In this document: positions 44,655 to 64,000 of the stretch, in pieces
Layout: each line of letters starts with the position of its first letter
Position numbering within the stretch: the stretch's first letter is position 1
Notes under the pieces: model-generated
What the model was told of the DNA's origin: nothing
Seen by the model: the letters and a program-made list of their open reading frames with translations, nothing else
Databases searched by the model: none
Translations under genes and position numbers: made by a program
DNA from: Salinarimonas sp.
Lineage (GTDB): Bacteria; Pseudomonadota; Alphaproteobacteria; Rhizobiales; Beijerinckiaceae
Assembly: GCF_040111675.1 (NCBI RefSeq)
Contig: NZ_CP157794.1
Coordinates: 4,694,444 to 4,758,443 of the forward strand
DNA length: 64,000 nt
Direction of reading: 5' to 3'

Positions 44655-44676
44655 CCTTTCGTCCACAAGCAAAATA
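44655..44676 (-). promoter_or_regulatory. candidate GntR-type operator (minus strand TATTTTGCTTGTGGACGAAAGG)
   Basis: It lies 7-28 nt upstream of the GntR ATG and matches the core of 43894-43916 at about 14/16 positions in inverted orientation. Confidence 0.4.
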
Positions 44677-44891
44677 CAGAAGGGACGGACGAGATCAACG
44701 CCGACACGCCGCCAGATGCGCCGCCCGCGCGTGCCGAGGCGCCGAGGGGGCCGCCGTGACGTCGGAGCCAGGACGACTCCGCAGCCGGGTCGAGCTGGCG
44801 GCTGCATTCTCGCTCAGAAGCATCGTCCAGCCAGTGGGCTCGCAGCGTGTTCCACCTGCCTGTGGCCCCCTCCGGATCGTCCCCGGACCGT

Positions 44892-45779: not shown

Positions 45780-45932
45780 CGGCGGGCCCTCCACTCGGGT
45801 CTTCCCTTGGGTGAGGATAAGCCGAGAGCGCGAAAGCCGCAGCTATGATTCGATAAACGCCGCGCCCTACCCCGCCGCGCGCGGACGTGGCCTGATCGGG
45901 ATGTCGAAACCCGAGACGGGAGGACCGAGGTC

Positions 45933-48411: not shown

Positions 48412-48540
48412 CGGGTCTCCTTTCTCGGGCTCGCCGCCCTCGGCGCGGCGGCGGCGACGGTCTCGGGCTGCGCCGGGCCGCTCTCGACGCTCGACCCGGC
48501 GGGGCCTGCGGCGGAGCGCGTCGCGACCCTGTGGTGGATC

Positions 48541-49143: not shown

Positions 49144-51665
49144 ACGACCCCGTCGTCGCCGCCCGCCGCTCCAGGGCGATCCGCCTGCATCGCGGCCTCT
49201 CCGCGATCTGGGACACGCCGCCTGGCCTCCCGCGCCTCGCGGCGGTGAACCACACCATCGTCGGGCGGCGCTTCATGCTCACGGCGCTCGCCTTCTTCGC
49301 CGCGGCGGGCCTGCTGGCGATGCTGATCCGCACCCAGCTCGCCGTTCCGACGAACGACTTCCTGGGACCCGACGCCTACAACCAGATCGTCACGGTGCAC
49401 GGCACGGTGATGATGTTCCTGTTCGCCATCCCCTTCATCGAGGGGCTGGCGATCTACCTCCTGCCGAAGCTGCTCGGCGCGCGGGACCTCGCCTTCCCGC
49501 GCCTATCGGCCTTCGGCTACTGGTGCTACCTGATCGGCGGCACGACCGTGCTCGGCTCCATCGCCTTCGGCGCCGCGCCCGACGGCGGCTGGTTCATGTA
49601 CGCGCCGCTCTCGACGAAGCCCTACTCGCCCGGCATCGGCGCGGACGTCTGGCTGCTCGGCATCACCTTCGTCGAGGTCTCCGCCATCGCGGCGGCGGTG
49701 GAGATCGCGGTGACGATCCTGAAGGTGCGCGCGCCGGGCATGTCGCTGTCGCGCATGCCGATCCTCGCCTGGTACCTCCTCGTCACGGCGATCATGATCC
49801 TCGGGGGCTTCCCGCCGCTGATCCTCGGCTCGATCCTGCTGGAGACCGAGCGCGCCTTCGGATGGCCGTTCTTCTCGCCCGAACGCGGGGGCGATCCGCT
49901 GCTGTGGCAGCACCTGTTCTGGCTGTTCGGCCACCCGGAGGTCTACATCATCTTCGTGCCCGCGGCCGGCGTGATCTCGACCGTGCTCCCCGTCTTCGCC
50001 CGCCGGCCGATCGTGGGATATTCCTGGGTCGTCGCCGCCGTGGTGGCGCTCGGCTTCCTGTCCTTCGGGCTGTGGGTGCACCACATGTTCGCCACCGGGC
50101 TGCCGCGGCTCTCGCTGGGCTTCTTCTCCGCCGCCTCGCTGCTCGTGACGGTGCCCACCGCCGTGCAGATCTTCGCCTGGCTGGCGACGCTCGCGAAGGG
50201 CCGCCCGGTCCTGTCGCTGCCGATGCTCTACATCCTCGGCTTCTTCTTCGTCTTCGTCGCCGGCGGGCTCACCGGGGTGATGGTGGCGATCGTGCCGTTC
50301 GACGAGCAGGTGCACGACACGCATTTCGTCGTCGCGCACCTGCACTACGTCCTCATCGGCGGCTTCGTCCTGCCGGCCATCGCGGGCGTCTACTATTGGC
50401 TGCCGCAGATCTCCGGTCGGGTGCCGGTCTTCGGCCTGGGCAAGACCGCGTTCTGGCTGATCTTCGCCGGCTTCAATCTCACCTTCCTCGTCATGCACTG
50501 GACGGGGCTCCTCGGCATGCCCCGGCGCGTCTTCACCTACGAGGAGGGGCTCGGCTGGCATCTGCCGAACCTGATCTCGTCCTTCGGCGCCTTCCTGCTC
50601 ACCGCGGGCTTCGCCCTCGTCGCCCTCGACCTCTTCCTGCAGCTGCGCCACGGCAAGTCGTTCCGGCGCAATCCTTGGGGGGCGGGCACGCTGGAATGGG
50701 CGATGCCCACGCCCCCTGCGCCCTACAATTTCGCGAGCCTGCCGCACGTCTCCGATCGCGACCCGCTCCACGCCGAGCCCGCCCTGCCCGAATGCCTCGC
50801 CGCGGGCGAAGGCTATCTCGGACGCGTTCACGAGGGCCGCATGGAGACCCTCGTCGTCTCGATGGTGGAGGGGAAGCCCGAGCAGATCCTCCTCCTGCCG
50901 AACCAGGACTACACGCCGCTCTGGACGGCGCTCTCCCTCGCGGTCTTCTTCGGCGCCATGCTGGCGGGGCTCTACTGGCTCGCCCCGGCGGGGCTCGTGC
51001 TCACCCTCGTCTTCGCCTGGCGCTGGGCGGCGAGCGGGGCGATGCGGGACGATCCGCCGATCGAGGACGCGGGCCGCGGCGTTTCCCTGCCGCTCCACCT
51101 CGCCGCGCCGCGCCCGCCGGCCTGGTGGGGAATGGTGTTCCTGCTCCTCGCCGACGCGATCCTGTTCGGCTCCCTCGCCTTCGGCGCGATCTACCTCGCG
51201 ACCTTCGCGCCCGGCTGGCCGGCGACCGCGCCCTGGGAGCCGGCCTCGGCCGCGGCGCTCGCCGCCGCGATCGCGCTGGCGCTCGCGGGGCTCGCGGGCC
51301 CTGCGGCGATGGGCGCCAACCGTCGCGCCGGGATCGCCCGCGGCGCGATGCGGGACGCGCTCCTCGCGCTCTGCGCCGCGGGAAGCCTCGGCGCCCTCGC
51401 CGCGCTCGCCTGGCTCGCCTGGGCTCTCGACCCGACGGCGCACGCCCACGGCGCGGTGGCCGGCGCGCTCCTCGCCTATGCGGGCTTTCACGCGCTGATC
51501 GGGCTCCTCACGAGCGCCTTCGCCCTGCGCGGGAGCCTCGCCGGCCTCGTCTCCGACGTCCGCCGCACGCCGGTCGAGGTCGCCGCGATGTGGCAGGCCT
51601 ATACGGCCGCGACGGGGCTTCTCGCGCTCGTCCTCGCCCTCTACGCGCCGGAGGCGCTGCGATGA
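49140..51665 (+). CDS. ctaD: cytochrome c oxidase subunit I fused to a subunit III-like C-terminal domain
   Basis: ATG 49140 (ATGA overlap) within ORF 48531-51665. 841 aa. Heme-copper motifs are present (WFFGHPEVYI-like LFWLFGHPEVYIIF, HHMF, HDTHFVVAHLHYV), followed by ~280 aa of additional TM helices. Confidence 0.9.
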   Translation: MNDPVVAARRSRAIRLHRGLSAIWDTPPGLPRLAAVNHTIVGRRFMLTALAFFAAAGLLAMLIRTQLAVPTNDFLGPDAYNQIVTVHGTVMMFLFAIPFIEGLAIYLLPKLLGARDLAFPRLSAFGYWCYLIGGTTVLGSIAFGAAPDGGWFMYAPLSTKPYSPGIGADVWLLGITFVEVSAIAAAVEIAVTILKVRAPGMSLSRMPILAWYLLVTAIMILGGFPPLILGSILLETERAFGWPFFSPERGGDPLLWQHLFWLFGHPEVYIIFVPAAGVISTVLPVFARRPIVGYSWVVAAVVALGFLSFGLWVHHMFATGLPRLSLGFFSAASLLVTVPTAVQIFAWLATLAKGRPVLSLPMLYILGFFFVFVAGGLTGVMVAIVPFDEQVHDTHFVVAHLHYVLIGGFVLPAIAGVYYWLPQISGRVPVFGLGKTAFWLIFAGFNLTFLVMHWTGLLGMPRRVFTYEEGLGWHLPNLISSFGAFLLTAGFALVALDLFLQLRHGKSFRRNPWGAGTLEWAMPTPPAPYNFASLPHVSDRDPLHAEPALPECLAAGEGYLGRVHEGRMETLVVSMVEGKPEQILLLPNQDYTPLWTALSLAVFFGAMLAGLYWLAPAGLVLTLVFAWRWAASGAMRDDPPIEDAGRGVSLPLHLAAPRPPAWWGMVFLLLADAILFGSLAFGAIYLATFAPGWPATAPWEPASAAALAAAIALALAGLAGPAAMGANRRAGIARGAMRDALLALCAAGSLGALAALAWLAWALDPTAHAHGAVAGALLAYAGFHALIGLLTSAFALRGSLAGLVSDVRRTPVEVAAMWQAYTAATGLLALVLALYAPEALR

Positions 51666-52015
51666 GCGTGCTCGCACGCCCGATCGGTCTCCTGGGCCTC
51701 GCCGTCGGCTTCCTCGTCTGGTCGGCGGCCTTCCTCGTGCTCTACGGGCTGCACGCGCTCGGCTGCGCCTGGGGCTGGGACGCCCGCGCGGCCGGGCCGA
51801 CGAGCCTGCTGCGGCTCGTCCTGGTCGCCGCCTGGATCGGGCATCTCGCCCTTCTCGCCGGGCTCGCCATTCCCGCGCGCCGGCTCGCCCGCGCGGCGCA
51901 GGCCGGGGACGCCCCTGCCCTCCTCGCGCGCACGACCCTCGCCCTCACCCTCGCCGCGCTCGTCGCGACGCTCTGGACCGGCCTTCCGACGATCGCCTAC
52001 CCGCTCTGCCGCTGA
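51662..52015 (+). CDS. small membrane protein coupled to the oxidase genes
   Basis: ATG 51662 (ATGA overlap) within ORF 49523-52015. 117 aa with 3 hydrophobic segments. Confidence 0.6.
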   Translation: MSVLARPIGLLGLAVGFLVWSAAFLVLYGLHALGCAWGWDARAAGPTSLLRLVLVAAWIGHLALLAGLAIPARRLARAAQAGDAPALLARTTLALTLAALVATLWTGLPTIAYPLCR

Positions 52016-52115
52016 ATGCGGAACGGTGGGGCCTCGCCGAAACGGCCGAGGTCCCGAACGGCCAAGCCGCCGGCGCGTTCTCCTCAGGGCGCGCGGCCGC
52101 GCCGCGGGAGGACGC

Positions 52116-52625
52116 ATGAAGAAGCTCTACGAGGGATTGGCGCTCGTCTATTTCGTCATCGCGACCCTGGCGATCATGCTGCTCGCCTTCCTCCTCATCG
52201 TGAGCGCCATCTGGAACGTCGTCGTGGCCCTGCCGGCGAAGGACGTGGTCGACCCCGTGCTCGAGGGGATCGGCCTCCTCATCATCGGCTTCGCCGTGGT
52301 GGAGACCGCGAAGTTCATCGCCGAGGAGGAGATCCTGCGCCGGCGCGAGCTGCGCTCGGCGGTGGAATCGCGCCGCTCGCTGACGAAGTTCGTCACCATC
52401 ATCGTCATCGCCGCGAGCCTCGAGGCGCTGGTGATGGTGTTCAAGACGAGCCGCGCCAGCATCCCGGACGCCATCTATCCCGCCGCCCTGTTCATCGCCG
52501 CGATGGCGGCGCTCGTCGCGCTCGGCGGCTACCAGTGGCTGTCGAGCCGCATCAACCCGGAGATCCCGCCGGGCGACCCGTCCGGCCACGGTCGCGACGG
52601 GAACGGCGACGGCGAGCAGCGCTGA
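52116..52625 (+). CDS. membrane protein, unknown family
   Basis: ATG 52116 after GGGAGGA, within ORF 52026-52625. Sequence: MKKLYEGLALVYFVIATLAIMLLAFLLIVSAIW... with 4 TM segments. Confidence 0.6.
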   Translation: MKKLYEGLALVYFVIATLAIMLLAFLLIVSAIWNVVVALPAKDVVDPVLEGIGLLIIGFAVVETAKFIAEEEILRRRELRSAVESRRSLTKFVTIIVIAASLEALVMVFKTSRASIPDAIYPAALFIAAMAALVALGGYQWLSSRINPEIPPGDPSGHGRDGNGDGEQR

Positions 52626-52641
52626 GCGCCCGCACGCCGTC

Positions 52642-53577
52642 TCACGCCGAGGCGGGCTTGCGGGCGCGCCGGAGCGAGACGGTCCCGTAGACGGTGAACG
52701 CCGTGAGCAGCAGCACGCAGACGAGGCTCGCCTGCGAGACGGCGAGGCGCGGATCGGCGAGCTGGGCGAGATAGGTGAAGATCAGGTTCGTCGAGAACAG
52801 GAGCGAGACCGTCATCGGCTCGGTGCGCGAGATGCCGATCTGCAGGAGGTAGATGCCGATGAACACGCCTATGACGGTGAGCACCGCGATGGTGCCGATG
52901 GTCGCGGGCGTGTAGGGCGACCACGAGCCCTCGCTCGCCAGGATCGCGAAGGCGACGACATTGAGCAGCGTGAACCGCACCGTCATGATGTCGGCCGAGG
53001 AGAAGTCCCGCTCCGTCAGCGCCTTGGTCACGTAGGTGTTGGTGCTCACCCCCAGCGCGGTGAGGAGCGCCGCGACGACGCCGACGGCGACGGTCGTCCA
53101 GGGCAGCGCGCCCAGCCCGCTGAGGCCCTGCGCGGAGACGGCGACCAGGGCGAGGACCGAGAGGGCGCAGCCCACCGCCGCGACGAGCTCCTGGCGGAGG
53201 ATCGGCGCGTTCGGCCGCAGCCGCGGCGCGAGGGCGAGGGTGATCAGCGGGATCGCGCCGACGATGAGGCCGTTGACCACCGCCGGCTCCAGCGCATCGA
53301 GGGCGTAGAGCACGGCGAGCCAGCTCAGCGCCGTCGTCACGTTGATGGCCAGGACGTGCCGCCAGGCGCCGCGCGCCTTCGCGAGGAGCGCGCCGCGCTC
53401 GCGATGGGTGGCGAGGTAGACGATCTGGGCCAGCACGAAGCAGTTCACCGCGATGAAGGCCGGCGACAGCGTCACCAGGACGTAGCCCTCGAAAACCGAC
53501 TTCGCGGCGTTCATCAACGTGTAGCCGAGCACGTAGACGGCGCCGGGCACCACCCAGGCCGCCTCACGCCGCGACAT
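52642..53577 (-). CDS. EamA/DMT-family transporter (putative exporter)
   Basis: ATG 53577 within ORF 52642-53646. 311 aa with about 10 TM segments in two EamA-like halves. It overlaps the upstream ATP-grasp stop by 14 nt. Confidence 0.85.
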   Translation of the reverse strand: MSRREAAWVVPGAVYVLGYTLMNAAKSVFEGYVLVTLSPAFIAVNCFVLAQIVYLATHRERGALLAKARGAWRHVLAINVTTALSWLAVLYALDALEPAVVNGLIVGAIPLITLALAPRLRPNAPILRQELVAAVGCALSVLALVAVSAQGLSGLGALPWTTVAVGVVAALLTALGVSTNTYVTKALTERDFSSADIMTVRFTLLNVVAFAILASEGSWSPYTPATIGTIAVLTVIGVFIGIYLLQIGISRTEPMTVSLLFSTNLIFTYLAQLADPRLAVSQASLVCVLLLTAFTVYGTVSLRRARKPASA

Positions 53578-54805
53578 CGTAGAAGCTCTCCCGGTCGAGA
53601 TGCCGGATCGTGCGGGAATCGCGCACGACGGCGGCCGCGTCCGCATGAGCGAGCACGATCATCATCGGGTAGGTCACGTCGTTGATCGTCACCTTCAGGT
53701 CTCCGCCCGGACGCACGATCTCGACGATCTCGCGGAAGGTCTCCAGCGCCTGGACCGCGGGCAGGCCCGGATAGCCGACGAGCCGCCCCGCGCGGCGGCT
53801 GATCAAGGCGGTGGAGGAGACGGTGGCCTCGAGCCGGTAGGGCGTCCCGGCCTCGGCGCGGAAGCGCTCCGGCTCGGCGTAGGCGGTGGCGATCCAGTCG
53901 ATCTGGCTCCGGCCGAGGCCCGTCCGCGCGATGCGCGAGAGCGGGCCGCCCACCAGCCGGGCGCCGAGCTCGACGAGGCGCGGGCCTTCGCGGGTCATCC
54001 GGATCTCGAGATGGGCGGGGCTGTCCGTGACCCCGAGCGCGTCGAGGCAGGCGCGGGCGTAGGGCGCGAGCCGGTCCTGCACCTCGCCCGTCGCGGGCAG
54101 GAGGATGGCCGAATCGAGCAGGTTGAGCACGCCGTTGGCGGCGACGTGCGTCGTCAGCCAGATCTCGGCGATGTGGTGCACGCCGCCACGGCTGACCGTG
54201 TTGACGTAGTACTCGTGGCCGTCGAGGTAGGATTGTGCGACGACCGCCTCGATCAGGTCGCCGTAGAAGCTCGTTCGTCCCACCACCGCGTCGAAGGCCG
54301 CGCCGGCTTGCTGCGGCGTGTCGCAGAAGGAGACGCCGTCGTTGAGCGCGGAATTGAGCGGCTTCACCACGATGCGCGCGCCCTGCTCGCGGGCGAAGGC
54401 TTCGACCTCGGCGCGGCTGCGGCACAGGCGCTGCGCCGCCGCCGGGACGCCGGCCTCGTGCAGCGCCTCGATCATCGCGTACTTGTCGCGCCGCAGCGCC
54501 GTCGTCGTCGGGTCGTTGGTGGGCGCGCCGTGCGCGAAGGCGAGCGCCTCGGCGAGCTCGACGCCGTACTCGGATCCGGCGATCACCTGCTCGACCCCGA
54601 GCGCCCGCAGCCGCGCCGCGGTGGCGGCGAGATCGCCCTCGTGCACCACGTTCTCGACGAAGTCGCCGGGCCGGAAGGTCGGCGCGTGCATGGCGAGGAG
54701 CGTCGGCCGGCTCTGCACGTGTACGCAGGCCGCGCCGCGCCCGGCGAGCGCCGGAGCGATCTGGTTCGCCGACGAATAGGCGTTGACGATGGCGATGCGT
54801 CTCAT
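53564..54805 (-). CDS. ATP-grasp ligase (L-amino-acid-ligase-like)
   Basis: ATG 54805 (ATGA overlap) within ORF 53564-55735. 413 aa: MRRIAIVNAYSSANQIAPAL...RDKYAMIEAL...IVVKPLNSALNDGV...QSYLDGHEYYVNTV...HLEIRMTREGPRLVELGARL. Confidence 0.8.
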   Translation of the reverse strand: MRRIAIVNAYSSANQIAPALAGRGAACVHVQSRPTLLAMHAPTFRPGDFVENVVHEGDLAATAARLRALGVEQVIAGSEYGVELAEALAFAHGAPTNDPTTTALRRDKYAMIEALHEAGVPAAAQRLCRSRAEVEAFAREQGARIVVKPLNSALNDGVSFCDTPQQAGAAFDAVVGRTSFYGDLIEAVVAQSYLDGHEYYVNTVSRGGVHHIAEIWLTTHVAANGVLNLLDSAILLPATGEVQDRLAPYARACLDALGVTDSPAHLEIRMTREGPRLVELGARLVGGPLSRIARTGLGRSQIDWIATAYAEPERFRAEAGTPYRLEATVSSTALISRRAGRLVGYPGLPAVQALETFREIVEIVRPGGDLKVTINDVTYPMMIVLAHADAAAVVRDSRTIRHLDRESFYDVAA

Positions 54806-55905
54806 CGGGCGGCCTCCGCGAGGGGTACGAGGTCGTCGGCGACCGGTCCGACGACGAAGGCGCCGCGCCGGTTGATGGCGTCGAGGCGCGCGATGTCGGC
54901 CTCGAGCACCTCGAGCGCGGCGTGCGCGAGGAAGACCGTGGCGCCGTAGCTGTAGCCGTCGAAGGTGGGCGCCGCCCGCGCGCCGAGGGCGGGCTCCTGG
55001 TAGAGGTAGCGATAGGTCGGCAGGCGCCGGATCTCGGGCAGGTCCGGCAGGTCGAGGAGCACGCCTTCCTCGTCGACGACGAAGGAATAGTCGGCGACGA
55101 AGCCCTCCGGCTCCGGCGTGTCGGGGAGCGCGGTCTCGAAGCCGTGCGCGCGGGCGCGCTCGAACAGCGCGCGCTGCCCCGGCTGCCCGCCGAGGCGGCA
55201 CAGCGCCGGCAGCGGCTCCGTCGCGAGACGCGGCGCGGCCTTGACCAGCCGCGCCCCGCCGGCTTGCGTGAGCACGAGCTCGAAATGCACGGGCCCGGCG
55301 AGGATGCCCAAGGCCCGCGCGAGGCGCCCGAGCCGCTCCGTGAGATCGGCCGGCAGCGCCGCGCGCGGCAGGTTGACGACGCTCGCGAGAATGTCGCGGC
55401 AGCCGATCGGCATCAGGATGCAGCGCCAGACGTCGGCGAGGGCGAGGCGCCCGCCCGACACGACGCCGTTGACGAAGATCGGCTGCCCGGGCTCGTGGAC
55501 GTGCGCGTGCAACGCCCCGCAGCGCGCGAGATAGGCGCGCTCGGCCGGGCTCGGCGGCCGGTCCGGGCCGATCACGAGGGCGGAGCCCTTGGACGAGGCG
55601 GAGAGCCGCGGGCGCACGACGAGCGTGCGCTCCGGCGCGGACGGCACGTCCTCGGCCCGGGCCTGGTCGACGGCCTCGAAGGCGAGGTCCGGCTCGACCT
55701 TCCGGACGAGCGCGTGCTGCAGGCTCTTGTCGCACAAGGCGGCCGGGTCGGCCTGCGGATTGAAGAAGCCGGCGCGGGCGTTGCGGGAGGCGGCCTCGAT
55801 CACCTGGGCGTCGGTCTCGGCCAGGGTGAACGGGCCGCGCGGCGTCGCGACCCGCACGAGGCCGGGCGCGAGCGTCTCGACGGGCGGAGCGATCCAGTCC
55901 GTCAC
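54802..55905 (-). CDS. second, divergent ATP-grasp-like ligase
   Basis: GTG 55905 (GTGA overlap) within ORF 54802-56463. 367 aa. ATP-grasp C-terminal pattern is present (GPVHFELVLTQAGGARLVKAAPRL). Confidence 0.7.
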   Translation of the reverse strand: MTDWIAPPVETLAPGLVRVATPRGPFTLAETDAQVIEAASRNARAGFFNPQADPAALCDKSLQHALVRKVEPDLAFEAVDQARAEDVPSAPERTLVVRPRLSASSKGSALVIGPDRPPSPAERAYLARCGALHAHVHEPGQPIFVNGVVSGGRLALADVWRCILMPIGCRDILASVVNLPRAALPADLTERLGRLARALGILAGPVHFELVLTQAGGARLVKAAPRLATEPLPALCRLGGQPGQRALFERARAHGFETALPDTPEPEGFVADYSFVVDEEGVLLDLPDLPEIRRLPTYRYLYQEPALGARAAPTFDGYSYGATVFLAHAALEVLEADIARLDAINRRGAFVVGPVADDLVPLAEAAR

Positions 55906-56651
55906 AGCCCGAGCTCCGCGCGCGTCTGGCCCTCGAAATGGATGCGCCGCACGCCGCCGTCGCGCGGCTGCGTCAGCGCGAAGCGCACGGCGTTCCAGAT
56001 CGCCGGCTCGCCCAGCAGCGACCCGGGCGCCCGCGGCGCGTACCAGTCCGGCGACAGCGGCTCGACGTTGTCGAAGTCCGGCGGGAACAGGCCCGTGACG
56101 CGGATGCCCTCCGGCGCGAGCCGCGCGCCGAGCACGTCGCAGAAGCCGGCCACGCCGTGCTTGGCGGCGTAGAAGGCCGGGTGCGCGTTCGAGCGCAGGT
56201 AGCCCGGCTCGCCGCAGACCGAGACCATGGCGAGGATGTCCGCCTGCCCGGCCCGTCGCAGCGCGGGCAGGAGGCGCTTCGTGAGGATCATGGCGCCGGT
56301 CAGGCTGGAGCTCACCGTGTCCGCGATGTCGGCGTCGTCGACCTCGTCGAGCTCGCCTTCGAGCCAGCGTGCGGCGTTCAGGACGAGGACGTCCACGCCG
56401 GAGCCGTCGCCAGCCACGGCCTCGGCGAAGGCCGAGACGGATTCGGGATCGGAGACGTCGCAAGCGTGCGCCCGCGCCCTGCCGCCACGGTCGCGGATCG
56501 TCATGGCCACGGCCTCGGCGGCGTCGCGGTCGCGCGCCGAGAGCTCGACGGCGCCCCCCTCGGCCGCGAACATGATCGCGAGCGTGCGCCCGAAGTCGCG
56601 GCCCGCTCCGGTGATGACGATGCGCTTGCCGGCGAAGGGTGCGGCGCTCAT
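55902..56651 (-). CDS. SDR-family oxidoreductase
   Basis: ATG 56651 (ATGA overlap) within ORF 55902-58271. 249 aa with ITGAGRDFG and YAAKHG motifs. Confidence 0.85.
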   Translation of the reverse strand: MSAAPFAGKRIVITGAGRDFGRTLAIMFAAEGGAVELSARDRDAAEAVAMTIRDRGGRARAHACDVSDPESVSAFAEAVAGDGSGVDVLVLNAARWLEGELDEVDDADIADTVSSSLTGAMILTKRLLPALRRAGQADILAMVSVCGEPGYLRSNAHPAFYAAKHGVAGFCDVLGARLAPEGIRVTGLFPPDFDNVEPLSPDWYAPRAPGSLLGEPAIWNAVRFALTQPRDGGVRRIHFEGQTRAELGL

Positions 56652-57415
56652 GCGGCGGTCTCCTCGTGCGTTGCGGCGGACTGGTCCGGGACGGTGTGGC
56701 TGCCCGACGCGTTCTCGGCGTAGAGCGTGGTGGCGATGTAGGCGGCGGCGCCGGGTCCCCAGCGCTCCGGGGAGACGTAGTCGTCGTGCTCGTCGGGCAG
56801 GCACTCCGCCAGCATGCGGGTGTTGATGCCGCCGCCGGGATCGAGCGCCACGGCGCGCACGCCTTCGGGCAGGTCGTGCCGGAGCGTGTCGACGATCCCC
56901 TCGACCGCGAACTTGCTCGCGCAATAGGGGCCGAGCCCCCAATCGGCGCTGCGTCCCCAGCCCGAGCTCGTGGCGACGAACAGCCCCGACCCGGCGGCGA
57001 TCATCGCCGGCAGGAAGGCCCGCGCCGTGATCGCCACGCCGAGGACGTTGACGTCGAGCACGCGACGCCATTGCGCCGTCTCGATCTCCCATACCGGCCG
57101 GCGCGGGTTGATCACCCCCGCATTGGCGACGACGAGGTCCGGCGCGCCCTCCCGGCAGGCCTCCTCGGCGAAGCGCGCCATCGCATCCTCGTCGGTGACG
57201 GAGGCGACGTGCACGAGGTGGCCCGGGCCGAGCGCGTCGGCGACCGCGCGCAGGCGCGCGGCGTCGGTGGCGCAGCCGGCGACGACGGCGCCGCGCGCGG
57301 CGAAGGCCCGCGCCAGGGCGAGCCCGAGGCCCTCCGAGACGCCGGTGATCACGACCCTGCGCGGCTCGGCCGGCGCAGGGTCTCGGGTGGCGGACGCAGT
57401 GGACGCGGTCGACAT
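56648..57415 (-). CDS. SDR-family oxidoreductase
   Basis: 255-aa ORF with an RBS GGGAGA and the motifs VITGVSEGLG, NAGV and YCASKFA. Confidence 0.85.
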   Translation of the reverse strand: MSTASTASATRDPAPAEPRRVVITGVSEGLGLALARAFAARGAVVAGCATDAARLRAVADALGPGHLVHVASVTDEDAMARFAEEACREGAPDLVVANAGVINPRRPVWEIETAQWRRVLDVNVLGVAITARAFLPAMIAAGSGLFVATSSGWGRSADWGLGPYCASKFAVEGIVDTLRHDLPEGVRAVALDPGGGINTRMLAECLPDEHDDYVSPERWGPGAAAYIATTLYAENASGSHTVPDQSAATHEETAA

Positions 57416-57436
57416 GCGATCTCCCGTGGCTGGCTT

Positions 57437-58210
57437 TCAGGTCCGCGCGGGGGCGAGCCGCGCGATCGGGTCGAGGCTGCGGGCCGCGTAGGCCGGCGGG
57501 CCGTTGGCGGGCCAGGGGGACAGGACCGTCTCCGCCGACACGAGCGCGAGGCCCGAGACGAAGACGAACGGCACGCCGAGCGCGCGCGCCGCGTCCCTGT
57601 CGGCCACGGCGTCGCCGAACAGGACGGCCTCGTCCGGGCGCAGCCCGCGCTCGGCGAGGAGCGCGGCCATGGCCTCGGCCTTCGGCGTCGGCGTGCCGAT
57701 CACCGCGTCGAACGCGCCGGCGAAGCCGGCGGCGTCGAGGGCGCGCGCCGCTTCGGCCCCGACACCACCGGTGACGACGGCGCAGGGTCGGTGCGCCGCG
57801 CGCAGCATGCCGACGAGAGCCCGCGCGCCCGGCGCGGGCGCCGAGAGCGGGTAGCGCTCGGCGAGGAGCGCGGCGTAGGCCGCGGTGCGCGTCCGCACGA
57901 AATCCTCCGCATCCTCGGGTGCGCCACCCAGGATGCGGTGAAAGGTGGCGAAATGCTCGGCCCGGCCGCGGCCGAAATTGGCCGCGAAGGTGGCGAGGCA
58001 GGCCTCGCGCTTCTCCGCCGGCGCGTCCGCGAGCACGTCCGCCACCGCATCGAGCTTGACCCGGTTGGCGTCGAGCAGCACGCCGTCGCAGTCGAAGAAG
58101 GCCATCGCCGCCGCGCGGGCGATCTCGCCCACGCTGCGCGGCTCGCTGCCGGGCTCGAGGTCGGGAGCCCCGGAGAGCGGCTGGCGGCCGGCGGCCGCGA
58201 GCGCGCTCAC
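57437..58210 (-). CDS. HAD-superfamily hydrolase
   Basis: 257-aa ORF (GTG start, GTGA overlap with the upstream stop). Motif I is FFDCDGVLLD and the late motif is FGDAVADRDAA. An internal ATG at 58105 is an alternative start. Confidence 0.75.
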   Translation of the reverse strand: MSALAAAGRQPLSGAPDLEPGSEPRSVGEIARAAAMAFFDCDGVLLDANRVKLDAVADVLADAPAEKREACLATFAANFGRGRAEHFATFHRILGGAPEDAEDFVRTRTAAYAALLAERYPLSAPAPGARALVGMLRAAHRPCAVVTGGVGAEAARALDAAGFAGAFDAVIGTPTPKAEAMAALLAERGLRPDEAVLFGDAVADRDAARALGVPFVFVSGLALVSAETVLSPWPANGPPAYAARSLDPIARLAPART

Positions 58211-59247
58211 GACGCCCTCCGCGCGGACTCGAGGAGACCGGCGTCGTAGCGGCCCTTGGGGGACGACGCAACGAGCCGGTCGAGAACGGCGAAGCGATCG
58301 AGATCGGTCATGGCGGCGTCCTCGGCGAGCTTCTGGGCGTAGGTCGGATGCAGGCCGACGCGGGCCTGCCAGCGGTAGAGCGGCGTCGCGCCCCAGCGGC
58401 TCTCGGCGCGCAGAGGCTCGACGTGGCGGGCGAGGAAGCGATCGCAGGCGGCGAGCGCCTCCGGCGTCGGCGCGGAATCGAGAAGAAGCCGCACCGTCTC
58501 GGTCGCCGCGTTGCCGGCGCCGCGGCCCAGCCCGCCCATGGTCGCGTCCACCATCCGAGCGCCCGCCTCGATCGCCGCCTGCGTGTTGGCGACGGCGAGG
58601 CCGATATTGTCGTGGGCATGGAAGCCGAGCGGGGTGGCGAGGGCGGCGCCGACGGTCTCGAACAGGCGGGTCACGTCCGCCGGCCGCATGCGCCCGAAGC
58701 TGTCGGCGAAGTACAGCGCCTGGATCGGCGCCTCGCCGAGGCGCCCGGGCAGCTCGGCGGCGAGCTGCTCGGGCGGCAGGTCGGCCGCCTGCATCAGGTT
58801 GACGATCGGGGTGATTCCGCGCGCCGCGAGCGCCGTCGCGACCGCGGCCGCGCCCGCGAGCCCGTCCATGCGGGTCGCGACGCGCACGGTCTCGATCGTG
58901 ACCGGCGCCTCGGAGAGGCGCTCGGCCACGCGGTCCGCCGCCTCCTCGGGCGCGACCCGCGCGGCGTCGGCCGCATCGACCATGACGGCCGCCGAGACCC
59001 GAGGGGCCTCGGCGAGGAGCGCGCGCTGCGCCAGCGTGAGGGAGCGCGGCAGGTCCGCGTAGTCGCCCGACGGCGCAGCCGGGGTCGGCGCCGCCACCCG
59101 CAGGTAGCCGAGCTCGACACGGTCGACGCCGAGCGCGGCGCAGACCGTGAGCCAGTCCGCCACGAACCCGTCCGAGAAGCGCCAGTCCGTCTGGTAGCCG
59201 CCGTCGCGCAGGGTGCAGTCGAGGAGGAGCGGGCGCGGGCGGGTCAT
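58207..59247 (-). CDS. HMGL-like / DRE-TIM metallolyase (pyruvate-carboxyltransferase-type aldolase)
   Basis: 346-aa ORF with an ATGA overlap and the motifs LLDCTLRDGG and GFHAHDNIGLAVANTQAAIEAGARMVDATMGGLGRGAGNA. Confidence 0.8.
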   Translation of the reverse strand: MTRPRPLLLDCTLRDGGYQTDWRFSDGFVADWLTVCAALGVDRVELGYLRVAAPTPAAPSGDYADLPRSLTLAQRALLAEAPRVSAAVMVDAADAARVAPEEAADRVAERLSEAPVTIETVRVATRMDGLAGAAAVATALAARGITPIVNLMQAADLPPEQLAAELPGRLGEAPIQALYFADSFGRMRPADVTRLFETVGAALATPLGFHAHDNIGLAVANTQAAIEAGARMVDATMGGLGRGAGNAATETVRLLLDSAPTPEALAACDRFLARHVEPLRAESRWGATPLYRWQARVGLHPTYAQKLAEDAAMTDLDRFAVLDRLVASSPKGRYDAGLLESARRAS

Positions 59248-59627
59248 TCGGCCGCCTCCCGCGCGCCGGACCCCGCGGGGCGGCTCCAGTTGAAGATCGG
59301 GTCCAGGCGATACCAGTTGAGCGCCGTGTCGTTGCCCTCGATGCGGCGCAGCAGCTCGCCGTGCATCAGGTCGTCCCAGCGCTGGACGACGGGGTGCATC
59401 GCCAGCGCGCGGGTGAAGTCCCGCTGCGGGTCGAAGCCCTCCTCGGCCTCGACCTGCATGAACAGCGTGCGCGGCGGCAGGAGGTGGATCGACATGGCGC
59501 GCAGGCCGATGGCGTCGAGCGCGCCGCCCGGGCCGGAGATCTCGGGGGGGACGGCGCGATGGGCCTCGCGATAGCGCGCGAGCGCCTCGTCGGACACGAC
59601 CTCGATGGCGAAACCGATGCGAATCAT
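59244..59627 (-). CDS. L-rhamnose mutarotase (RhaM/DUF718) family protein
   Basis: ATG 59627 (ATGA overlap) within ORF 59244-59801. 127 aa: MIRIGFAIEVVSDEALARYREAHRAVPPEI...LFMQVEAEEGFD...HPVVQRWDDLM. Confidence 0.7.
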   Translation of the reverse strand: MIRIGFAIEVVSDEALARYREAHRAVPPEISGPGGALDAIGLRAMSIHLLPPRTLFMQVEAEEGFDPQRDFTRALAMHPVVQRWDDLMHGELLRRIEGNDTALNWYRLDPIFNWSRPAGSGAREAAE

Positions 59628-60562
59628 GCTGCCTCTCCCATGTCGGCGGCGGTGGTCACGGTGGCGAGCAGCCGGTCGTAGACGGTCTCGACCTCGGCGA
59701 GCGTCTCCGGGTCGACGTGGTAGTCGAGCGGCGGGCGGATGTCGGTGCGCTCGATGAGGCCACGGCGATGCAGGAGGTGCTTCGAGATCCCGAGATAGCA
59801 ATCTATGCTATTCATCATGTGACACATCAAGTACGAAAGCGGGTAGGCGATCTCGCGCGCCTCGCGCTCGCGCCCGGCCTCGAGAAGCCGCCAGAGGCGA
59901 ACCGTGATCTCGGCGATCTCGGTGGCGGGGATGACGCCGGCGAGGCCGCGGCGATAGGTGTCGGCGAGCATCATTCCGCCGTCGCCCTCGAAGATCCGCG
60001 CCTTGCCGCCGGTGGCCTCGCGCAGGAGCGAGACGCGCGGCGGGGTGGGCGCCGATTCGGGCTTGAACTGCACCTTCTCCGGCCCGTAGGCGGCTAACAG
60101 ACGCGCCTGCACCGCGATGGAGAGCGGCCGCTTGGCCAGGCTCTTGGCGTGGTGGACGAGGATCGGCAGGCCGACGGAGTCGATGACCGCCGCGAAGTAG
60201 CGGTACATTTCCTCGTCATCGAGGGCCATGATCGAGGGATGCATCACGAGGAGCGCGTCGCAGCCCGCCTTCTCGGCCTGGCGCGAGAACTCGATCGCCT
60301 CGCGAATGCTTTCTCCGCCCGTGCTCATCACCGAGACGCCGCGCGCGCCGCAGCTCTCGGCGAGCAGCTCCGCGACCCGGAAGCGCTCCGCGGTCGTCAG
60401 GCGCGAGACCTCCGAGACCTGGCCGACGACGACCCCGCTGCAGCCCACGTCGAGCATGTGCCCGACCTGCCTGCGAAAATCGGCCTCGTGGACGTCGCCG
60501 CGTTCGTCGTAGGGCATGATGACGACGGGAAGAACTCCCGCGAGAGCTTTTGCGCTGGTCAT
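59624..60562 (-). CDS. DapA/DHDPS/NAL-family class I aldolase
   Basis: 312-aa ORF with an RBS AAGGAA. Family pattern is present, with the Schiff-base Lys in VQFKPES. It is the first gene of the minus-strand operon. Confidence 0.85.
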   Translation of the reverse strand: MTSAKALAGVLPVVIMPYDERGDVHEADFRRQVGHMLDVGCSGVVVGQVSEVSRLTTAERFRVAELLAESCGARGVSVMSTGGESIREAIEFSRQAEKAGCDALLVMHPSIMALDDEEMYRYFAAVIDSVGLPILVHHAKSLAKRPLSIAVQARLLAAYGPEKVQFKPESAPTPPRVSLLREATGGKARIFEGDGGMMLADTYRRGLAGVIPATEIAEITVRLWRLLEAGREREAREIAYPLSYLMCHMMNSIDCYLGISKHLLHRRGLIERTDIRPPLDYHVDPETLAEVETVYDRLLATVTTAADMGEAA

Positions 60563-60700
60563 ACCTGTTCCTTTGGGTAGCGGTGAGAGGCTGGCCGCAA
60601 CACGCAGGCAAGCGGATCAGCGAGATAGAATGGCAATCAAAGCGTGTCAATCTAAAATTTTTGATCGGAGCGCATTGCTCAGCTGCACAATCTGCGATAC
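60563..60700. promoter_or_regulatory. divergent promoter region of the putative biosynthetic cluster
   Basis: Minus strand: TTGACA (60645-60650), a 17-nt spacer, then TATCTC (60622-60627). Plus strand: TTGATC (60661-66). The AT-rich stretch TCTAAAATTTTTGATC lies between the two -35 elements. Confidence 0.5.
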
Positions 60701-62080
60701 ATGACCGGGAACGTAGATGCTGCGCCGCACGGGCGCGGCCCAACTCCGGAGGCGCGAAACGTGCGGACGGCTCCCACTGTGCTCGATCTCGTCGGCGTCG
60801 GCTTCGGCCCGGCGAACCTCGCCCTGGCACTGGCGCTGGAAGAAGACGCTTCTTCGAGCCGCAGCGCCTATTCCAGACTCTTCCTCGAAGCGAAGAGAGA
60901 CTTCTCGTGGCACAAAGGGATGCTGCTCGACGGCGCCACGATGCAGATCTCCTTCCTGAAGGATCTCGTCACGCAACGCAACCCGCAGAGCCCTCACAGC
61001 TTCCTGTGCTATCTCAAGGACCGCGGCCGGCTGGCCGACTTCCTGAACCTCAAGGACTTCTTTCCGACCCGGCTCGAGTTCCACGACTATTTCAAATGGT
61101 GCTCGGAGGCCGTCGGTCCCGTGGTCCGCTACAACCAGAAAGTCCTCTCCGTGGATCTGGCGACGCCGGGCGGCGCGGCGGTCGCCACGCTCGCCGTGAC
61201 GGCGCGCGGGGCCGACGGAACGGAGCGTACGCATTTCACCCGCGCCGTGTCGCTGGCGATGGGTCTCGCGCCGCGCCTGCCGCTCGGGCTCGCGGCCGGG
61301 CCCCGTGTCTGGCATACGAGCGATCTCCTTCCGCGGACCACCGCCCTCGCGCCGTCGGCGAGCCCGCGCTTCGCCGTGGTCGGCGCCGGCCAGAGCGCGG
61401 CCGAGGCGGTCGAGCACCTGCTCGCGCGCTTCCCGGATGCACGCGTGCACACGATCATGAGCCGGCTCGGTTTCACGCCCTCCGACGATACGCCCTTCGT
61501 CAACCGGGTGTTCGATCCGACCATGGTCGACAGCTATCACGCCATGTCGCCGGAGCTGCGGTCGCACGTCCGCTCGACGCACGCCAACACCAATTACAGC
61601 GTCGTCGACCAGGACCTGATCGCCGCGCTCTACAAGCGCTGGTACGCCGATCGGGTGGCGGGGCGCGAGCGTCTCGTGCTGGAGCCGCTCTCGCGCCTGA
61701 CCGACGTCGAGGAGACCGCGGACGGGCTGCGGCTCGGCCTCGCGGCGGCGGCCGGGCCCGGAACCCGCGCGCTCGAGGTCGACTACCTCGTCTGCGCCAC
61801 CGGCTACGACCCCGTCTCGCCCGACGCGGTGCTCTCGCCCGCCTTGAGCGCGCTCGTCGAGCGCGACGCCTCCGGCGCCCCGATCATCGAGCGCGACTAC
61901 CGCCTGCGCACCCGCGCGCCGCTCCTCGCCCCGATCTACGTCCAGGGCGACTGCGAGGCGAGCCACGGCCTCTCGGCGACGCTGCTGTCCAACCTCGCGC
62001 CGCGAGCCGGGGAGATCCGCGACAGCCTCGCGGCGTACCTGGCCGGGCTCCAGGAGGAGGCGCGCTATGCCAGCGCCTGA
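60701..62080 (+). CDS. lysine/ornithine N-monooxygenase (SidA/IucD/PvdA family flavoprotein)
   Basis: 459-aa ORF with FAD motif GVGFGPANLALA, NADPH motif VVGAGQSAAE and the family pattern ...MQISFLKDLVT...DYLVCATGY. Confidence 0.9.
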   Translation: MTGNVDAAPHGRGPTPEARNVRTAPTVLDLVGVGFGPANLALALALEEDASSSRSAYSRLFLEAKRDFSWHKGMLLDGATMQISFLKDLVTQRNPQSPHSFLCYLKDRGRLADFLNLKDFFPTRLEFHDYFKWCSEAVGPVVRYNQKVLSVDLATPGGAAVATLAVTARGADGTERTHFTRAVSLAMGLAPRLPLGLAAGPRVWHTSDLLPRTTALAPSASPRFAVVGAGQSAAEAVEHLLARFPDARVHTIMSRLGFTPSDDTPFVNRVFDPTMVDSYHAMSPELRSHVRSTHANTNYSVVDQDLIAALYKRWYADRVAGRERLVLEPLSRLTDVEETADGLRLGLAAAAGPGTRALEVDYLVCATGYDPVSPDAVLSPALSALVERDASGAPIIERDYRLRTRAPLLAPIYVQGDCEASHGLSATLLSNLAPRAGEIRDSLAAYLAGLQEEARYASA

Positions 62081-63146
62081 GCGCGAGACGGTGGTGATCG
62101 GCGCCGGCGTGATCGGCGCCGCCGCGGCGCTCGCCCTGCGCCGGGCGGGACGCGCCGTCGCGCTGCTCGACGCCGATCGGGTCGCCGCCGGTGCGAGCGG
62201 CTGGTCGGGAGGCGTGGCGCGCGTGTTCCACCTCGACGCCGAGGAGGCCGCCCGCGCCGCCTACGGCCTGCCGATCCTGCGCGACCTCGCACGCGCCATC
62301 GGCGTGGGCGTGCCCTTCCACGAGACGGGCTACCTCTACTTCCCGAAGCCGCAGGACCGGGAGGCGGCGCTCGCCGCCGCGCGCGCCCTCGCGCCGGAGC
62401 ACGGAACGGAATTCGTCGGCGCCGGCCAGCTCGCGACCCTCTATCCCGGGCTCGCCCTGTCGGGCGAGGGGGCGATCCACGAGCCGCGGGCCGGCTTCGC
62501 CGATCCCCGCGCCGTCGCTCTCGCCTATGCGGAGGCCTTCGTGCGCGCCGGCGGCCGGTCGCTCGAGGGCGTCCGCGTCGGGGCGCTCGCGCCCGACGCC
62601 GGCGGCGTGCGGCTCGAGACGACGCTCGGCCCGATCCACGCCGACCAGGTGGTGCTCGCAGCCGGCTACGCGACGCCCGGCATGCTCGACGCGCTCGGCG
62701 TCGCCCACGACCTGTTCTCCCGTTCCATCCAAGTGACGCTGTTCGAGCCGCCGCATCGGATCGTCGCGCCCGCCTTCACGGACGAGGAGCTCGACGTCTA
62801 CGGCAAGCCCGATCCGGCGAGCGGAGGCCTCTACGTCGGCGCGCCGACCACGGCCGAGAGCCGCGGCGAGATCGCCGCAGAGCCCGTGGACGCCGACCAC
62901 GTCGGGCGGACGATGGCGGCGGCCCGCGACCGCTTCGGCTGGATGGACGCCGCGCGCCCGCGCGGCGGCCTGCGCCACGCCGACTGCTACAGCGCGCGCG
63001 GACGCGGCGAGGTGTTCCGCCTGCCGGGCGCGCTGTCGCGCATCGTCGTCGCCGCCGGCTTCTCCGGCGGAGGCTTCAAGATGGCGCCGTGGGCCGGCGA
63101 AGCCGCCGCGGCGCTCGTCGCGGAGCGCGCCGCCGACGCCGCCTGA
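62067..63146 (+). CDS. FAD-dependent oxidoreductase (DAO / glycine-oxidase-like)
   Basis: 359-aa ORF with an RBS AGGAGGAGG, the N-terminal motif VVIGAGVIGAAAALAL and C-terminal GFSGGGFKMAP. Confidence 0.85.
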   Translation: MPAPERETVVIGAGVIGAAAALALRRAGRAVALLDADRVAAGASGWSGGVARVFHLDAEEAARAAYGLPILRDLARAIGVGVPFHETGYLYFPKPQDREAALAAARALAPEHGTEFVGAGQLATLYPGLALSGEGAIHEPRAGFADPRAVALAYAEAFVRAGGRSLEGVRVGALAPDAGGVRLETTLGPIHADQVVLAAGYATPGMLDALGVAHDLFSRSIQVTLFEPPHRIVAPAFTDEELDVYGKPDPASGGLYVGAPTTAESRGEIAAEPVDADHVGRTMAAARDRFGWMDAARPRGGLRHADCYSARGRGEVFRLPGALSRIVVAAGFSGGGFKMAPWAGEAAAALVAERAADAA

Positions 63147-63233: not shown

Positions 63234-64000
63234 ATGCAGATCTTCGACCTGTTCGATTTCACGGGCGAAGCCTACGACCTCAAGTGCCGCCCCTTCGCGC
63301 CGAAGGGCGCCCCCGCGGGCGCCATGGTCTGCGAGGTCGCGCCCGGATCGGTCTCGCGCATCCACAATCACGCGGAGGCCGAGGCCTTCCTCGTGCTGGA
63401 GGGCGCGGGCCACGTCACCGACGGGACCGAGCGCCGGCCCATCGCCGCCGGGCAGGGCGTGCTGTTCCCGCCCTTCGTCAATCACGTGATCGAGAACGCC
63501 GACCCCGACAAGCCGCTGCGGATGATCTCGATCTACTGGATGGGCGACCTCGCCGCCGACGACGCCGCCGCGAAGGCCGGCGCGCCGCGCGACACGCTCG
63601 TCTTCTCGACGCCGCCGACCCCCAACGGCGATCTTCATCTCGGGCATCTCTCCGGGCCCTATCTCGCCGCCGACGTGCTGCGGCGCGCGCTCGCCCAGCG
63701 CGGCGCCGCGGCGCTCCACGTCACCGGGCGCGACGACAACCAGACCTACGTCCTGCTCAAGGCCTCGCGCGAGGGCTCGACGCCGACGGACGTCGCCGAC
63801 CGGTTCGCGCAGGCGATTCGCGGCACGCTCGCCGCCGCCGACATCCCCCTCGACGGCTTCATCGAGCCCGACCGCGACGGCCTCTACGCGGCTTTCGTCG
63901 CCGACCTCGTGGCGCGGCTCTCCGCCAACGGCTTCGTCGAGGCGCGCCGCGCCCCGGTCCTCGTCGACGACGCGGGGCGCGTGGTGCACGAGGCCTATGT
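63234..64000 (+). CDS. cupin domain fused to a methionyl-tRNA-synthetase-like class I catalytic domain (hydrazine synthetase-like); truncated by the window end
   Basis: Not in the ORF track (no stop in the window). ATG 63234 follows GGAGA. Cupin motifs are SRIHNHAEAEAFLVLEG and GVLFPPFVNHVIEN. The class I aaRS core follows: FSTPPTPNGDLHLGHLSGPYLAADV (HLGH at 63636-63647). Confidence 0.85.
   Translation, partial: MQIFDLFDFTGEAYDLKCRPFAPKGAPAGAMVCEVAPGSVSRIHNHAEAEAFLVLEGAGHVTDGTERRPIAAGQGVLFPPFVNHVIENADPDKPLRMISIYWMGDLAADDAAAKAGAPRDTLVFSTPPTPNGDLHLGHLSGPYLAADVLRRALAQRGAAALHVTGRDDNQTYVLLKASREGSTPTDVADRFAQAIRGTLAAADIPLDGFIEPDRDGLYAAFVADLVARLSANGFVEARRAPVLVDDAGRVVHEAY

Follow-up and report, generated by a model that had tools for sequence, protein, structure and literature searches.

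A por-type hydrazine-synthetase gene cluster with an added ligase and transporter, predicted in Salinarimonas sp.

Described hydrazine-synthetase systems and the Salinarimonas locus

Of the described systems, the por cluster, found in Pseudomonas orientalis DSM 17489, comes closest to the locus analysed here (Matsuda et al., JACS 2022, as summarised in PMC11705231); the summary gives its product as unknown. Two of its enzymes have been assigned: Por9 is an ornithine-specific N-hydroxylase and Por11 is a hydrazine synthetase that acts on N5-hydroxy-ornithine, or N4-hydroxy-2,4-diaminobutyric acid (N4-hydroxy-DABA), together with glycine (PMC11705231). The locus studied here comprises nine minus-strand genes, g1 to g9, and a divergent three-gene cassette predicted to form a nitrogen-nitrogen (N-N) bond. 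It lies at the end of a 64,000-nucleotide stretch of Salinarimonas sp. DNA (assembly GCF_040111675.1, contig NZ_CP157794.1, positions 4,694,444 to 4,758,443), hereafter the window. Protein matches of 100% agree with this alphaproteobacterial source, and an actinomycete origin, which the 72% G+C content might have suggested, was rejected. The deduced features are as follows, in the order in which the two transcription units read away from the region between them.

60563..60700: divergent intergenic region, 138 bp, relatively A+T-rich, common to both transcription units
60701..62080, plus strand: Por9/Spb38-type flavin-dependent lysine/ornithine N-hydroxylase (Pfam Lys_Orn_oxgnase, E 5e-100)
62067..63146, plus strand: Por10/Spb39-type DAO-family FAD oxidase (Pfam DAO, E 4e-45)
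63234..64000, plus strand: Por11/Spb40-type cupin + MetRS-like hydrazine synthetase (Pfam Cupin_2 and tRNA-synt_1g)
59624..60562, minus strand: g1, Schiff-base enzyme of the DHDPS/NAL family, atypical subfamily (Pfam DHDPS, E 9e-30)
59244..59627, minus strand: g2, RhaM-like (PF05336) small alpha+beta protein (Pfam rhaM, E 1e-14)
58207..59247, minus strand: g3, DRE-TIM metallolyase (Pfam HMGL-like, E 2e-26)
57437..58210, minus strand: g4, HAD-superfamily phosphatase (Pfam Hydrolase/HAD_2, HAD, E 4e-16)
56648..57415, minus strand: g5, canonical short-chain dehydrogenase/reductase (SDR; adh_short, E 7e-36)
55902..56651, minus strand: g6, atypical SDR (adh_short, E 1e-31)
54802..55905, minus strand: g7, non-canonical protein with an ATP-grasp fold, specific to the cluster; the conserved core ends with this gene
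53564..54805, minus strand: g8, canonical L-amino-acid ligase of the ATP-grasp type, accessory (Pfam ATP-grasp_4)
52642..53577, minus strand: g9, EamA/DMT-family membrane transporter, accessory (Pfam EamA, E 5e-11)

Alignment of the deduced proteins with those of P. orientalis DSM 17489, the por strain itself (locus L007 of our comparison), revealed collinear homologs of g1 to g7 with 71, 59, 48, 40, 54, 51 and 41% identity, respectively, and the N-hydroxylase, DAO and cupin-MetRS proteins were 45, 34 and 43% identical to their counterparts. The g1 homolog (WP_057724691.1) and Por9 (WP_057724698.1) are seven accession numbers apart, and since this spacing matches the gene order, g1 to g7 correspond to por2 to por8. 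In the por cluster the g1-g7 homologs are followed by an N-hydroxylase, a DAO-type oxidase and a cupin-MetRS protein, the same families as in the window, and neither cluster contains a non-ribosomal peptide synthetase (NRPS) or a polyketide synthase (PKS). The two differ in layout and in their ends. The por genes all run in one direction as a single operon, the last two encoding a Peripla_BP_6 protein and a pyridoxal-phosphate (PLP) decarboxylase, whereas in the window the cassette is divergent and g8 and g9 stand in place of these two genes, no homolog of which was found in the window or in L001, its closest relative. As judged from gene content, the window cluster is a por-type hydrazine-synthetase cluster in a variant form with a ligase and a transporter, and it very probably represents one functional N-N cluster of this type. 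The first-pass annotation did not know the gene combination from any described pathway. The combination does have a described homolog in the por cluster, two enzymes of which, the N-hydroxylase and the hydrazine synthetase, have been characterised.

The hydrazinoacetic-acid cassettes Spb38/39/40 and Tri26/27/28 (s56-p1, triacsin and azaserine) consist of the same three enzyme families, with the same cupin and HLGH motifs. Those pathways pass the hydrazine to carrier-protein, NRPS or PKS machinery, while the window cluster has none of these and carries aldolase-type enzymes instead. In the actinopyridazinone (apy) pathway a hydrazine synthetase provides the hydrazine that ends up in a six-membered N-N ring. 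The apy DAO homolog cleaves on the amino-acid side, so that the hydrazine stays on the diamino acid, and the ring carbons come from a hybrid PKS, which the window cluster lacks. The fuscazine (fuz) cluster was described from Microbispora, under the name 'Microbiospora fusca' (Nat Chem 2026, PMC13149037). It combines a hydrazine cassette with two ATP-grasp ligases, has no NRPS and gives a small peptide product in which FuzC forms a hydrazide (PMC13149037). The pairing of ATP-grasp ligases with a hydrazine cassette thus has a precedent. The fuz cluster differs from the window cluster in being devoid of DHDPS, RhaM, HMGL, HAD and SDR genes and in carrying a tRNA deacylase and a Fe/2-oxoglutarate-dependent hydroxylase, and the likeness of FuzC and FuzH is one of description only.

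A cupin (125 aa) and MetRS-like (529 aa) pair from Streptomyces malaysiensis was synthesised by Zhao et al. 2021. The cassette genes of our loci L091 and L092 match this pair in size, and its accession, ATL88544, is close to that of a g1 homolog, ATL88547. Our searches of the available literature found no paper describing the aldolase-type module or its product; papers on N-nitroglycine, on diazo capture and on thrazarine, as well as Aravind 2010, were considered and concern other clusters.

Operon structure and co-occurrence of the module with the cassette

All nine open reading frames (ORFs) were intact on the minus strand from 60562 to 52642, as the first-pass annotation had reported. The G+C content at third codon positions (GC3) was 0.89-0.97 and that at second positions (GC2) 0.46-0.59 across g1 to g9; because this is the pattern expected in a 72% G+C genome, the nine are taken to be real genes, and a GGAG-like Shine-Dalgarno sequence stands 6-12 nt upstream of every start. 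Stop-start overlaps were read as ATGA at four junctions (59624-59627, 59244-59247, 56648-56651 and 54802-54805) and as GTGA at two (58207-58210 and 55902-55905), g8 and g9 overlap by 14 nt (ATGTCGCGGCGTGA, at 53564-53577), and the sole gap within the nine genes is the 21 nt at 57416-57436. Every one of these strings, and the 138-bp divergent region, was re-read and agreed exactly with the earlier description. On the cassette side the oxidase gene overlaps the N-hydroxylase gene by 14 nt. The 12 genes visible in the window are intact and show strong codon bias, the synthetase being seen only to the window edge. Promoter and terminator scans gave nothing above chance: within the divergent region a single sigma-70-like match was present on the plus strand at 60630-60658, and a TTGACA was read by eye on the minus strand. 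The nine genes probably form one translationally coupled operon within an NRPS- and PKS-free secondary-metabolite cluster of about 14 genes.

The association of the nine genes with the cassette was examined in 80 genome loci retrieved with a g3 profile and, in addition, in metagenome loci. The cassette was present in four of the 80, and these were the only ones with a g3 identity of at least 36%; the remaining 76 carried remote g3 homologs in unrelated contexts and no cassette. The loci recovered at or above this identity came from Pseudomonas, Xenorhabdus, Streptomyces, a Burkholderiaceae metagenome-assembled genome and four metagenome lineages. In all of them the cassette is adjoined by the DHDPS-like, RhaM-like, HMGL-like and HAD genes, and most also hold the SDRs and g7. 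Homologs of g1 to g7 adjoin the cassette in the metagenomic relative L001-3, in two Pseudomonas loci (P. monsensis L004 and P. orientalis L007), in Xenorhabdus (L005) and in Streptomyces (L008, L009 and L091/92). The same holds for the metagenome loci L088 and L090 and, except for a missing g6, for L087. The Burkholderiaceae contig (L023) carries a partial cluster, and L089 has only g1-g4 and g6, in a divergent arrangement with an NRPS nearby.

Gene order varied among these loci. In P. monsensis, Xenorhabdus sp. BG5, P. orientalis and L088, g1 to g7, the cassette, the Peripla_BP_6 gene and the PLP-decarboxylase gene form one co-directional operon. A TARA scaffold has the cassette first, together with an HMGL-RhaM fusion, a TauD gene and g9- and g8-like genes; L090 has all of g1 to g9 after the cassette, beside recombinases. 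Streptomyces beigongshangae carries all twelve genes, and the S. malaysiensis-type genomes (11.5 Mb) carry the core plus an asparagine synthase, without g8 and g9. The differing gene orders favour selection over common descent of one block as the cause of the association. The first-pass annotation had proposed that the operon and the cassette are one biosynthetic cluster, and comparative genomics bears this out, since the module lies beside the cassette in every lineage with close homologs; the proposal is strongly supported by these gene neighbourhoods. Among the loci compared, no homologous operon was found that lacked the cassette and stood beside sugar-acid catabolic genes.

The core, as deduced from these loci, consists of the N-hydroxylase, the DAO-type oxidase, the cupin/MetRS protein, g1 to g4, at least one SDR and g7 (except in L089). 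Treating the nine genes as a single set is therefore correct for g1 to g7, the conserved part, and not for g8 and g9, which are accessory and occur in some lineages only. The accessory pair g8 and g9 was found in Salinarimonas, two Streptomyces (L008 being listed for g8 only), L087 and L090. The Peripla_BP_6 gene occurs in most lineages except Salinarimonas and L008, the PLP decarboxylase in Pseudomonas, Xenorhabdus, L088 and L089, and the asparagine synthase in S. malaysiensis (L091:663-2507), S. beigongshangae (L009 near 1088) and L089:15038-16879, with 58-94% mutual identity. The recurrence of this asparagine-synthase-type amidotransferase suggests that some members of the family carry a carboxamide. 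Further accessory genes encode an ARD cupin, a Pyridox_ox_2 protein, TauD and a DDAH-like protein. In Streptomyces the Peripla_BP_6 protein is in some cases fused to a second DAO-type oxidase (L091:3264-5252 and L009:1878-3917, 662-679 aa); this fusion ties Peripla_BP_6 functionally to the oxidation of the hydrazine conjugate.

The g1 subfamily comprises about 96 clusters at 90% identity, and its hosts include P. entomophila, P. putida, X. nematophila, Legionellaceae, Micromonospora, Amycolatopsis and many Streptomyces. A tier at 47% identity, known here from the g1 sequence alone, is present in Pantoea, Erwinia, Dickeya and Serratia. Genes for transposases, a resolvase/recombinase or an integrase flank family members at L005:245-2720, L090:19956-21062 and L006:5534-6676, which is consistent with horizontal spread between phyla. 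In L088, a Pseudomonas-like locus, an extracytoplasmic-function (ECF) sigma factor, a FecR-like protein and a TonB-dependent receptor are encoded directly upstream of the cluster (L088:1036-5105); this set is typical of siderophore uptake and regulation, and its position may be a coincidence or may indicate a metal-binding product.

The closest relative, L001-3, is an 87%-identical metagenomic lineage represented by three independent assemblies and has the same layout as the window. On the cassette side L001 continues with a further SDR and a second EamA gene, followed by a helicase and SecA; on the other side the cluster stops after g9. In L001-3 the synthetase (L001:5228-6019) loses homology after residue ~158 and reads out of frame to 263 aa. 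The deletion breakpoint corresponds to window position 63707, where colinearity stops, and the remaining L001-3 genes are intact with 84-96% protein identity. The 263-aa cupin protein was considered as a new short synthetase in which an ATP-grasp enzyme replaces the MetRS part, and this was ruled out, as the shortening is a deletion with a change of frame and the window gene continues normally.

Core enzymes, ligase-fold proteins and the transporter

The cassette proteins are close to characterised enzymes. The nearest structures to the N-hydroxylase are MbtG (lysine; 2.5e-121) and then KtzI (ornithine; 1.6e-101), and those nearest to the DAO-family oxidase are sarcosine oxidases. The first 255 residues of the synthetase lie within the window and the gene continues past its end. 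They carry the cupin motif HNHAEAE and the class-I motif HLGH, and the protein aligns in frame with residues 1-252 of a 668-aa Pseudomonas enzyme at 44% identity.

The g1 protein is the most conserved in the cluster family, with 59-77% identity across the Pseudomonas, Xenorhabdus, Streptomyces and metagenome clusters. It has the fold and the Schiff-base lysine in common with the class I aldolases DapA and NAL (FKPES aligns with DapA K161). The catalytic T44/Y107/Y133 set of those enzymes, however, is replaced throughout the g1 subfamily: in all six orthologs aligned, DapA T44/T45 became Q/V, Y107 is lost and Y133 became H, and the motifs GTTGE and ILYNVPS read GQ(V/I)SE and LVHHAKS. On these substitutions g1 is, by prediction, not to be called a standard aldolase. 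The g3 protein is predicted to be a class II keto-acid aldolase or condensing enzyme: the DRE-TIM motif DCTLRDGG and the metal ligands H210-x-H212 are invariant in the g3 alignment (A1), and among known structures 3dxi ('putative aldolase') and 4-hydroxy-2-oxovalerate aldolases come closest. For g2 no relative was found in the Protein Data Bank (PDB) by sequence. Domains like g2 and HMGL-like domains are fused in P0028, P0032 and P0044 and in L087:6996-8378 (~460 aa), and because of these fusions g2 and g3 are considered to act as one unit.

Analysis of g4 revealed the DxD nucleophile (DCDG at residue 40) and the GDxxxD motif. Both SDRs were recognised by the same Pfam family; g5 has TGxxxGxG, NAG and YCASK and so the Ser-Tyr-Lys (YxxxK) set, whereas g6 has a phenylalanine at the position of the catalytic tyrosine, with the tyrosine shifted (the motif reads FYAAK in the window protein and FFAAK in the orthologs from Pseudomonas and Xenorhabdus).

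No Pfam match was obtained for g7. The protein is paralogous to g8 (25% identity, E 4e-14), and an AlphaFold (AF2) model with a mean predicted local distance difference test score (pLDDT) of 87.9 gave L-amino-acid ligases as the best Foldseek matches (E 1e-18 to 1e-15), among them 3vot, YwfE/BacD and RizA. In g7 the lysine that contacts the ATP phosphates is replaced by R98 and a glutamate that binds Mg2+ by K222, and both substitutions are invariant in alignment A2. The model thus points to an L-amino-acid-ligase fold, and the fold does not imply ligase activity. The g7 family is small and clearly set apart from ordinary ATP-grasp ligases: a search of 1.84 billion representatives at E<=1e-30 yielded only about 37 clusters at 50% identity.

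The g8 protein scored 318.9 bits against NCBIfam PRK07206, above the cut-off of 302, and matched the PDB L-amino acid ligase 30vh over its full length (E 1e-50). In this alignment the phosphate-binding lysine and the two Mg2+-binding acids are kept (VVKP, HLE and VELGAR). Full-length matches were also found to DdaF of dapdiamide biosynthesis (model E 2e-46), BacD/YwfE, RizA and BL00235; the DdaF score of 159 bits is far under the equivalog cut-off of 840, so that the substrate of g8 is not expected to be that of dapdiamide. The gene is present in L001-3, L008, L009, L087 and L090; clusters of the Pseudomonas, Xenorhabdus and S. malaysiensis types lack it. The g9 protein is hydrophobic along its entire length and is probably an exporter; it travels with g8 in L001-3, L009, L087 and L090, and the two are likely to be a ligation and export add-on to the core.

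The family calls of the first-pass annotation were thus borne out by Pfam or NCBIfam for g1 to g6, g8 and g9, with the reservations given above for g1, g6 and g7. Its wording of two aldolases, two reductases and two ATP-grasp ligases says more than the sequences allow, as g1 is without the Tyr/Thr set of DapA and NAL, g6 is without the SDR tyrosine and g7 carries invariant substitutions.

Proposed pathway and competing explanations

In the pathway that we propose, the flavin monooxygenase would N-hydroxylate the side-chain amine of ornithine or lysine, as expected from its homology to characterised enzymes, and the cupin/MetRS-like synthetase would join the N-hydroxylated amino acid to a small amino acid (glycine in Por11) in an ATP-dependent reaction. 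The sarcosine-oxidase-like flavoenzyme would then oxidise the hydrazine conjugate. The products of g1 to g7 may supply a keto-acid carbon unit and condense it onto the hydrazine: g3 with g2 would generate or use a pyruvate- or oxaloacetate-type enolate, g4 would take off a phosphate, g5 and possibly g6 would set the oxidation state, and g1 would carry out a DapA-like aldol reaction and ring closure, with the hydrazine nitrogen attacking in place of the amine of aspartate semialdehyde. Ring closure by g1 would give a tetrahydropyridazine or pyridazine-type N-N heterocycle on an amino-acid side chain. The g7 protein enters this scheme as a cluster-specific ATP-grasp-fold protein with no defined step assigned. 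Finally, g8 would join the non-proteinogenic amino acid to a second amino acid, a dipeptide strategy like that of dapdiamide or bacilysin, and g9 would export the dipeptide. The L-amino-acid ligase here suggests that the amino-acid backbone is retained in the product, as do the PLP decarboxylase, the amino-acid permeases and the LysE protein of sister clusters. The product may be a heterocyclic amino acid of the pyridazine type and not a linear hydrazide, at less than even odds.

A known compound may correspond to this scheme. Pyridazomycin is ornithine with its delta-nitrogen as N1 of a 5-carbamoylpyridazinium ring. Its labelling is reportedly the subject of a study by Bockholt et al. in 1994. 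In S. violaceoniger pyridazomycin reportedly derives from ornithine, glycine and oxaloacetate by enzymes that are unknown (PMC7347517). These precursors match the ornithine hydroxylase, the glycine-using synthetase and the keto-acid enzymes of the por-type family. The likeness to the window cluster is one of building blocks only, and the window differs in having a ligase and no asparagine synthase, so that its product would be at most a pyridazomycin analogue or dipeptide. The S. malaysiensis-type cluster, with an asparagine synthase and without g8 and g9, fits a free amino acid with a carboxamide. We take S. malaysiensis to belong to the violaceusniger clade. The reading in which the por-type family, the Salinarimonas cluster included, is the route to pyridazomycin-type pyridazines, with g1 closing the ring and the ligase here giving an exported dipeptide, is a tentative one, to which we assign a probability of about 0.3. 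In that reading the N-N bond would join the side-chain nitrogen of ornithine to glycine, and g1 would act by an aldol reaction plus transimination, much as tetrahydrodipicolinate is formed, with an oxaloacetate or pyruvate unit as donor and a hydrazine nitrogen as nucleophile.

Several points weigh against the proposed pathway. The structure nearest to the window N-hydroxylase is that of a lysine enzyme, MbtG, and the ornithine or lysine and glycine substrates of the N-hydroxylase and the synthetase are assumed from their relatives. The catalytic tyrosine of all characterised DapA and NAL aldolases is absent from g1, the active sites of g6 and g7 are non-canonical, and the roles given to g2, g3, g4 and g5 are likewise assumed. 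The window contains no asparagine synthase. To our knowledge none of the family's members has a known product. The integrity of the synthetase is judged from its first 255 residues, the gene being cut by the window end. Finally, the L001-3 lineage has probably inactivated the N-N step with its other genes kept intact, and because the deletion destroys the synthetase there, the Salinarimonas lineage may be losing the pathway.

Among the alternatives, the one that survives best is that of a linear product, in line with the first-pass annotation, which we consider rather unlikely. Here the DAO-type oxidase would free hydrazinoacetic acid, as in Spb39 and Tri27. Pyruvate and a phosphorylated aldehyde would be the starting materials from which g1 to g6 build a keto, hydroxy or sugar acid, and g7, g8 or both would attach this acid to the hydrazine, giving a linear hydrazide or amide for export by g9. 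The cassette is indeed of the same type as Spb38-40 and Tri26-28, which makes hydrazinoacetic acid, FuzC is a documented ATP-grasp ligase that forms a hydrazide, and an aldolase, a HAD phosphatase and an SDR are a typical tool kit for keto-deoxy acids. The gene content fits this less well, however, since the PLP decarboxylase, permeases and L-amino-acid ligase in sister clusters suggest that the alpha-amino-acid moiety is kept; moreover g7 is without the canonical ATP and Mg residues, g1 is without the aldolase catalytic tyrosine, and no sugar substrate is indicated.

A second alternative is that in this lineage only a decaying or silent remnant of the cluster is left, from which no product is made; we consider it improbable. 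Deletion of the synthetase gene past residue ~158 in all three L001-3 assemblies would agree with it, as would the transposases, integrase or resolvases that adjoin family members. The 12 window genes are nevertheless intact with strong codon bias, the window synthetase is in frame and homologous up to the window edge, and the other L001-3 genes have remained intact at the identities given above.

Lastly, a catabolic operon for keto-deoxy sugar acids (rhamnose- or fucose-like) to which the cassette is merely adjacent is effectively excluded: RhaM-like, DHDPS-family, HMGL-like and SDR proteins do occur in sugar-acid catabolism and remote g3 homologs (<=38% identity) stand in other contexts, some beside GntR regulators, but genes for a sugar kinase, a dehydratase, a sugar transporter and a catabolic regulator are all missing from the operon, it ends in an amino-acid ligase and an exporter, and all close homologs adjoin the cassette in distant phyla, in differing gene orders and often within one co-directional operon.

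The surroundings of the cluster in the window were compared with those in L001. A small ORF at 52016-52690 on the plus strand, with no Pfam match, converges on the end of g9; it is kept in the relative (L001:16616-17125, 169 aa) and could be a sign of where the cluster ends. Between the DUF2231 gene and this ORF the window (48452-52055) has about 3.6 kb of DNA that is extra with respect to L001:17191-17300. It consists of a second set of cytochrome oxidase subunits I and II, roughly 70% identical. Farther out, at 42864-45794, a second DHDPS-family gene lies beside GntR/FCD and LysR regulators; it is separated from the cluster by cytochrome oxidase genes and has the appearance of an ordinary catabolic unit.

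The por-type gene combination itself was already known, and what is new is the variant with an added ligase and exporter. Hydrazine-synthetase cassettes otherwise feed NRPS, PKS, carrier-protein or simple peptide-ligase pathways, whereas the por-type family pairs the cassette with aldolase-type enzymes for carbon-carbon bonds. Its hosts are associated with plants, insects or soil (P. orientalis, P. monsensis, P. entomophila, P. putida, Xenorhabdus, many Streptomyces, Micromonospora and Amycolatopsis). Solving the pathway of this family would reveal a new way of building N-N compounds and enzymes of the g1 and g7 families with unprecedented chemistry, and the Salinarimonas version would provide a ligation and export variant for comparison. 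The por-type family is a concrete, testable candidate for pyridazine biosynthesis, and the link to pyridazomycin, if true, would answer how nature makes the pyridazine ring, a question that has been open since the labelling study of 1994.

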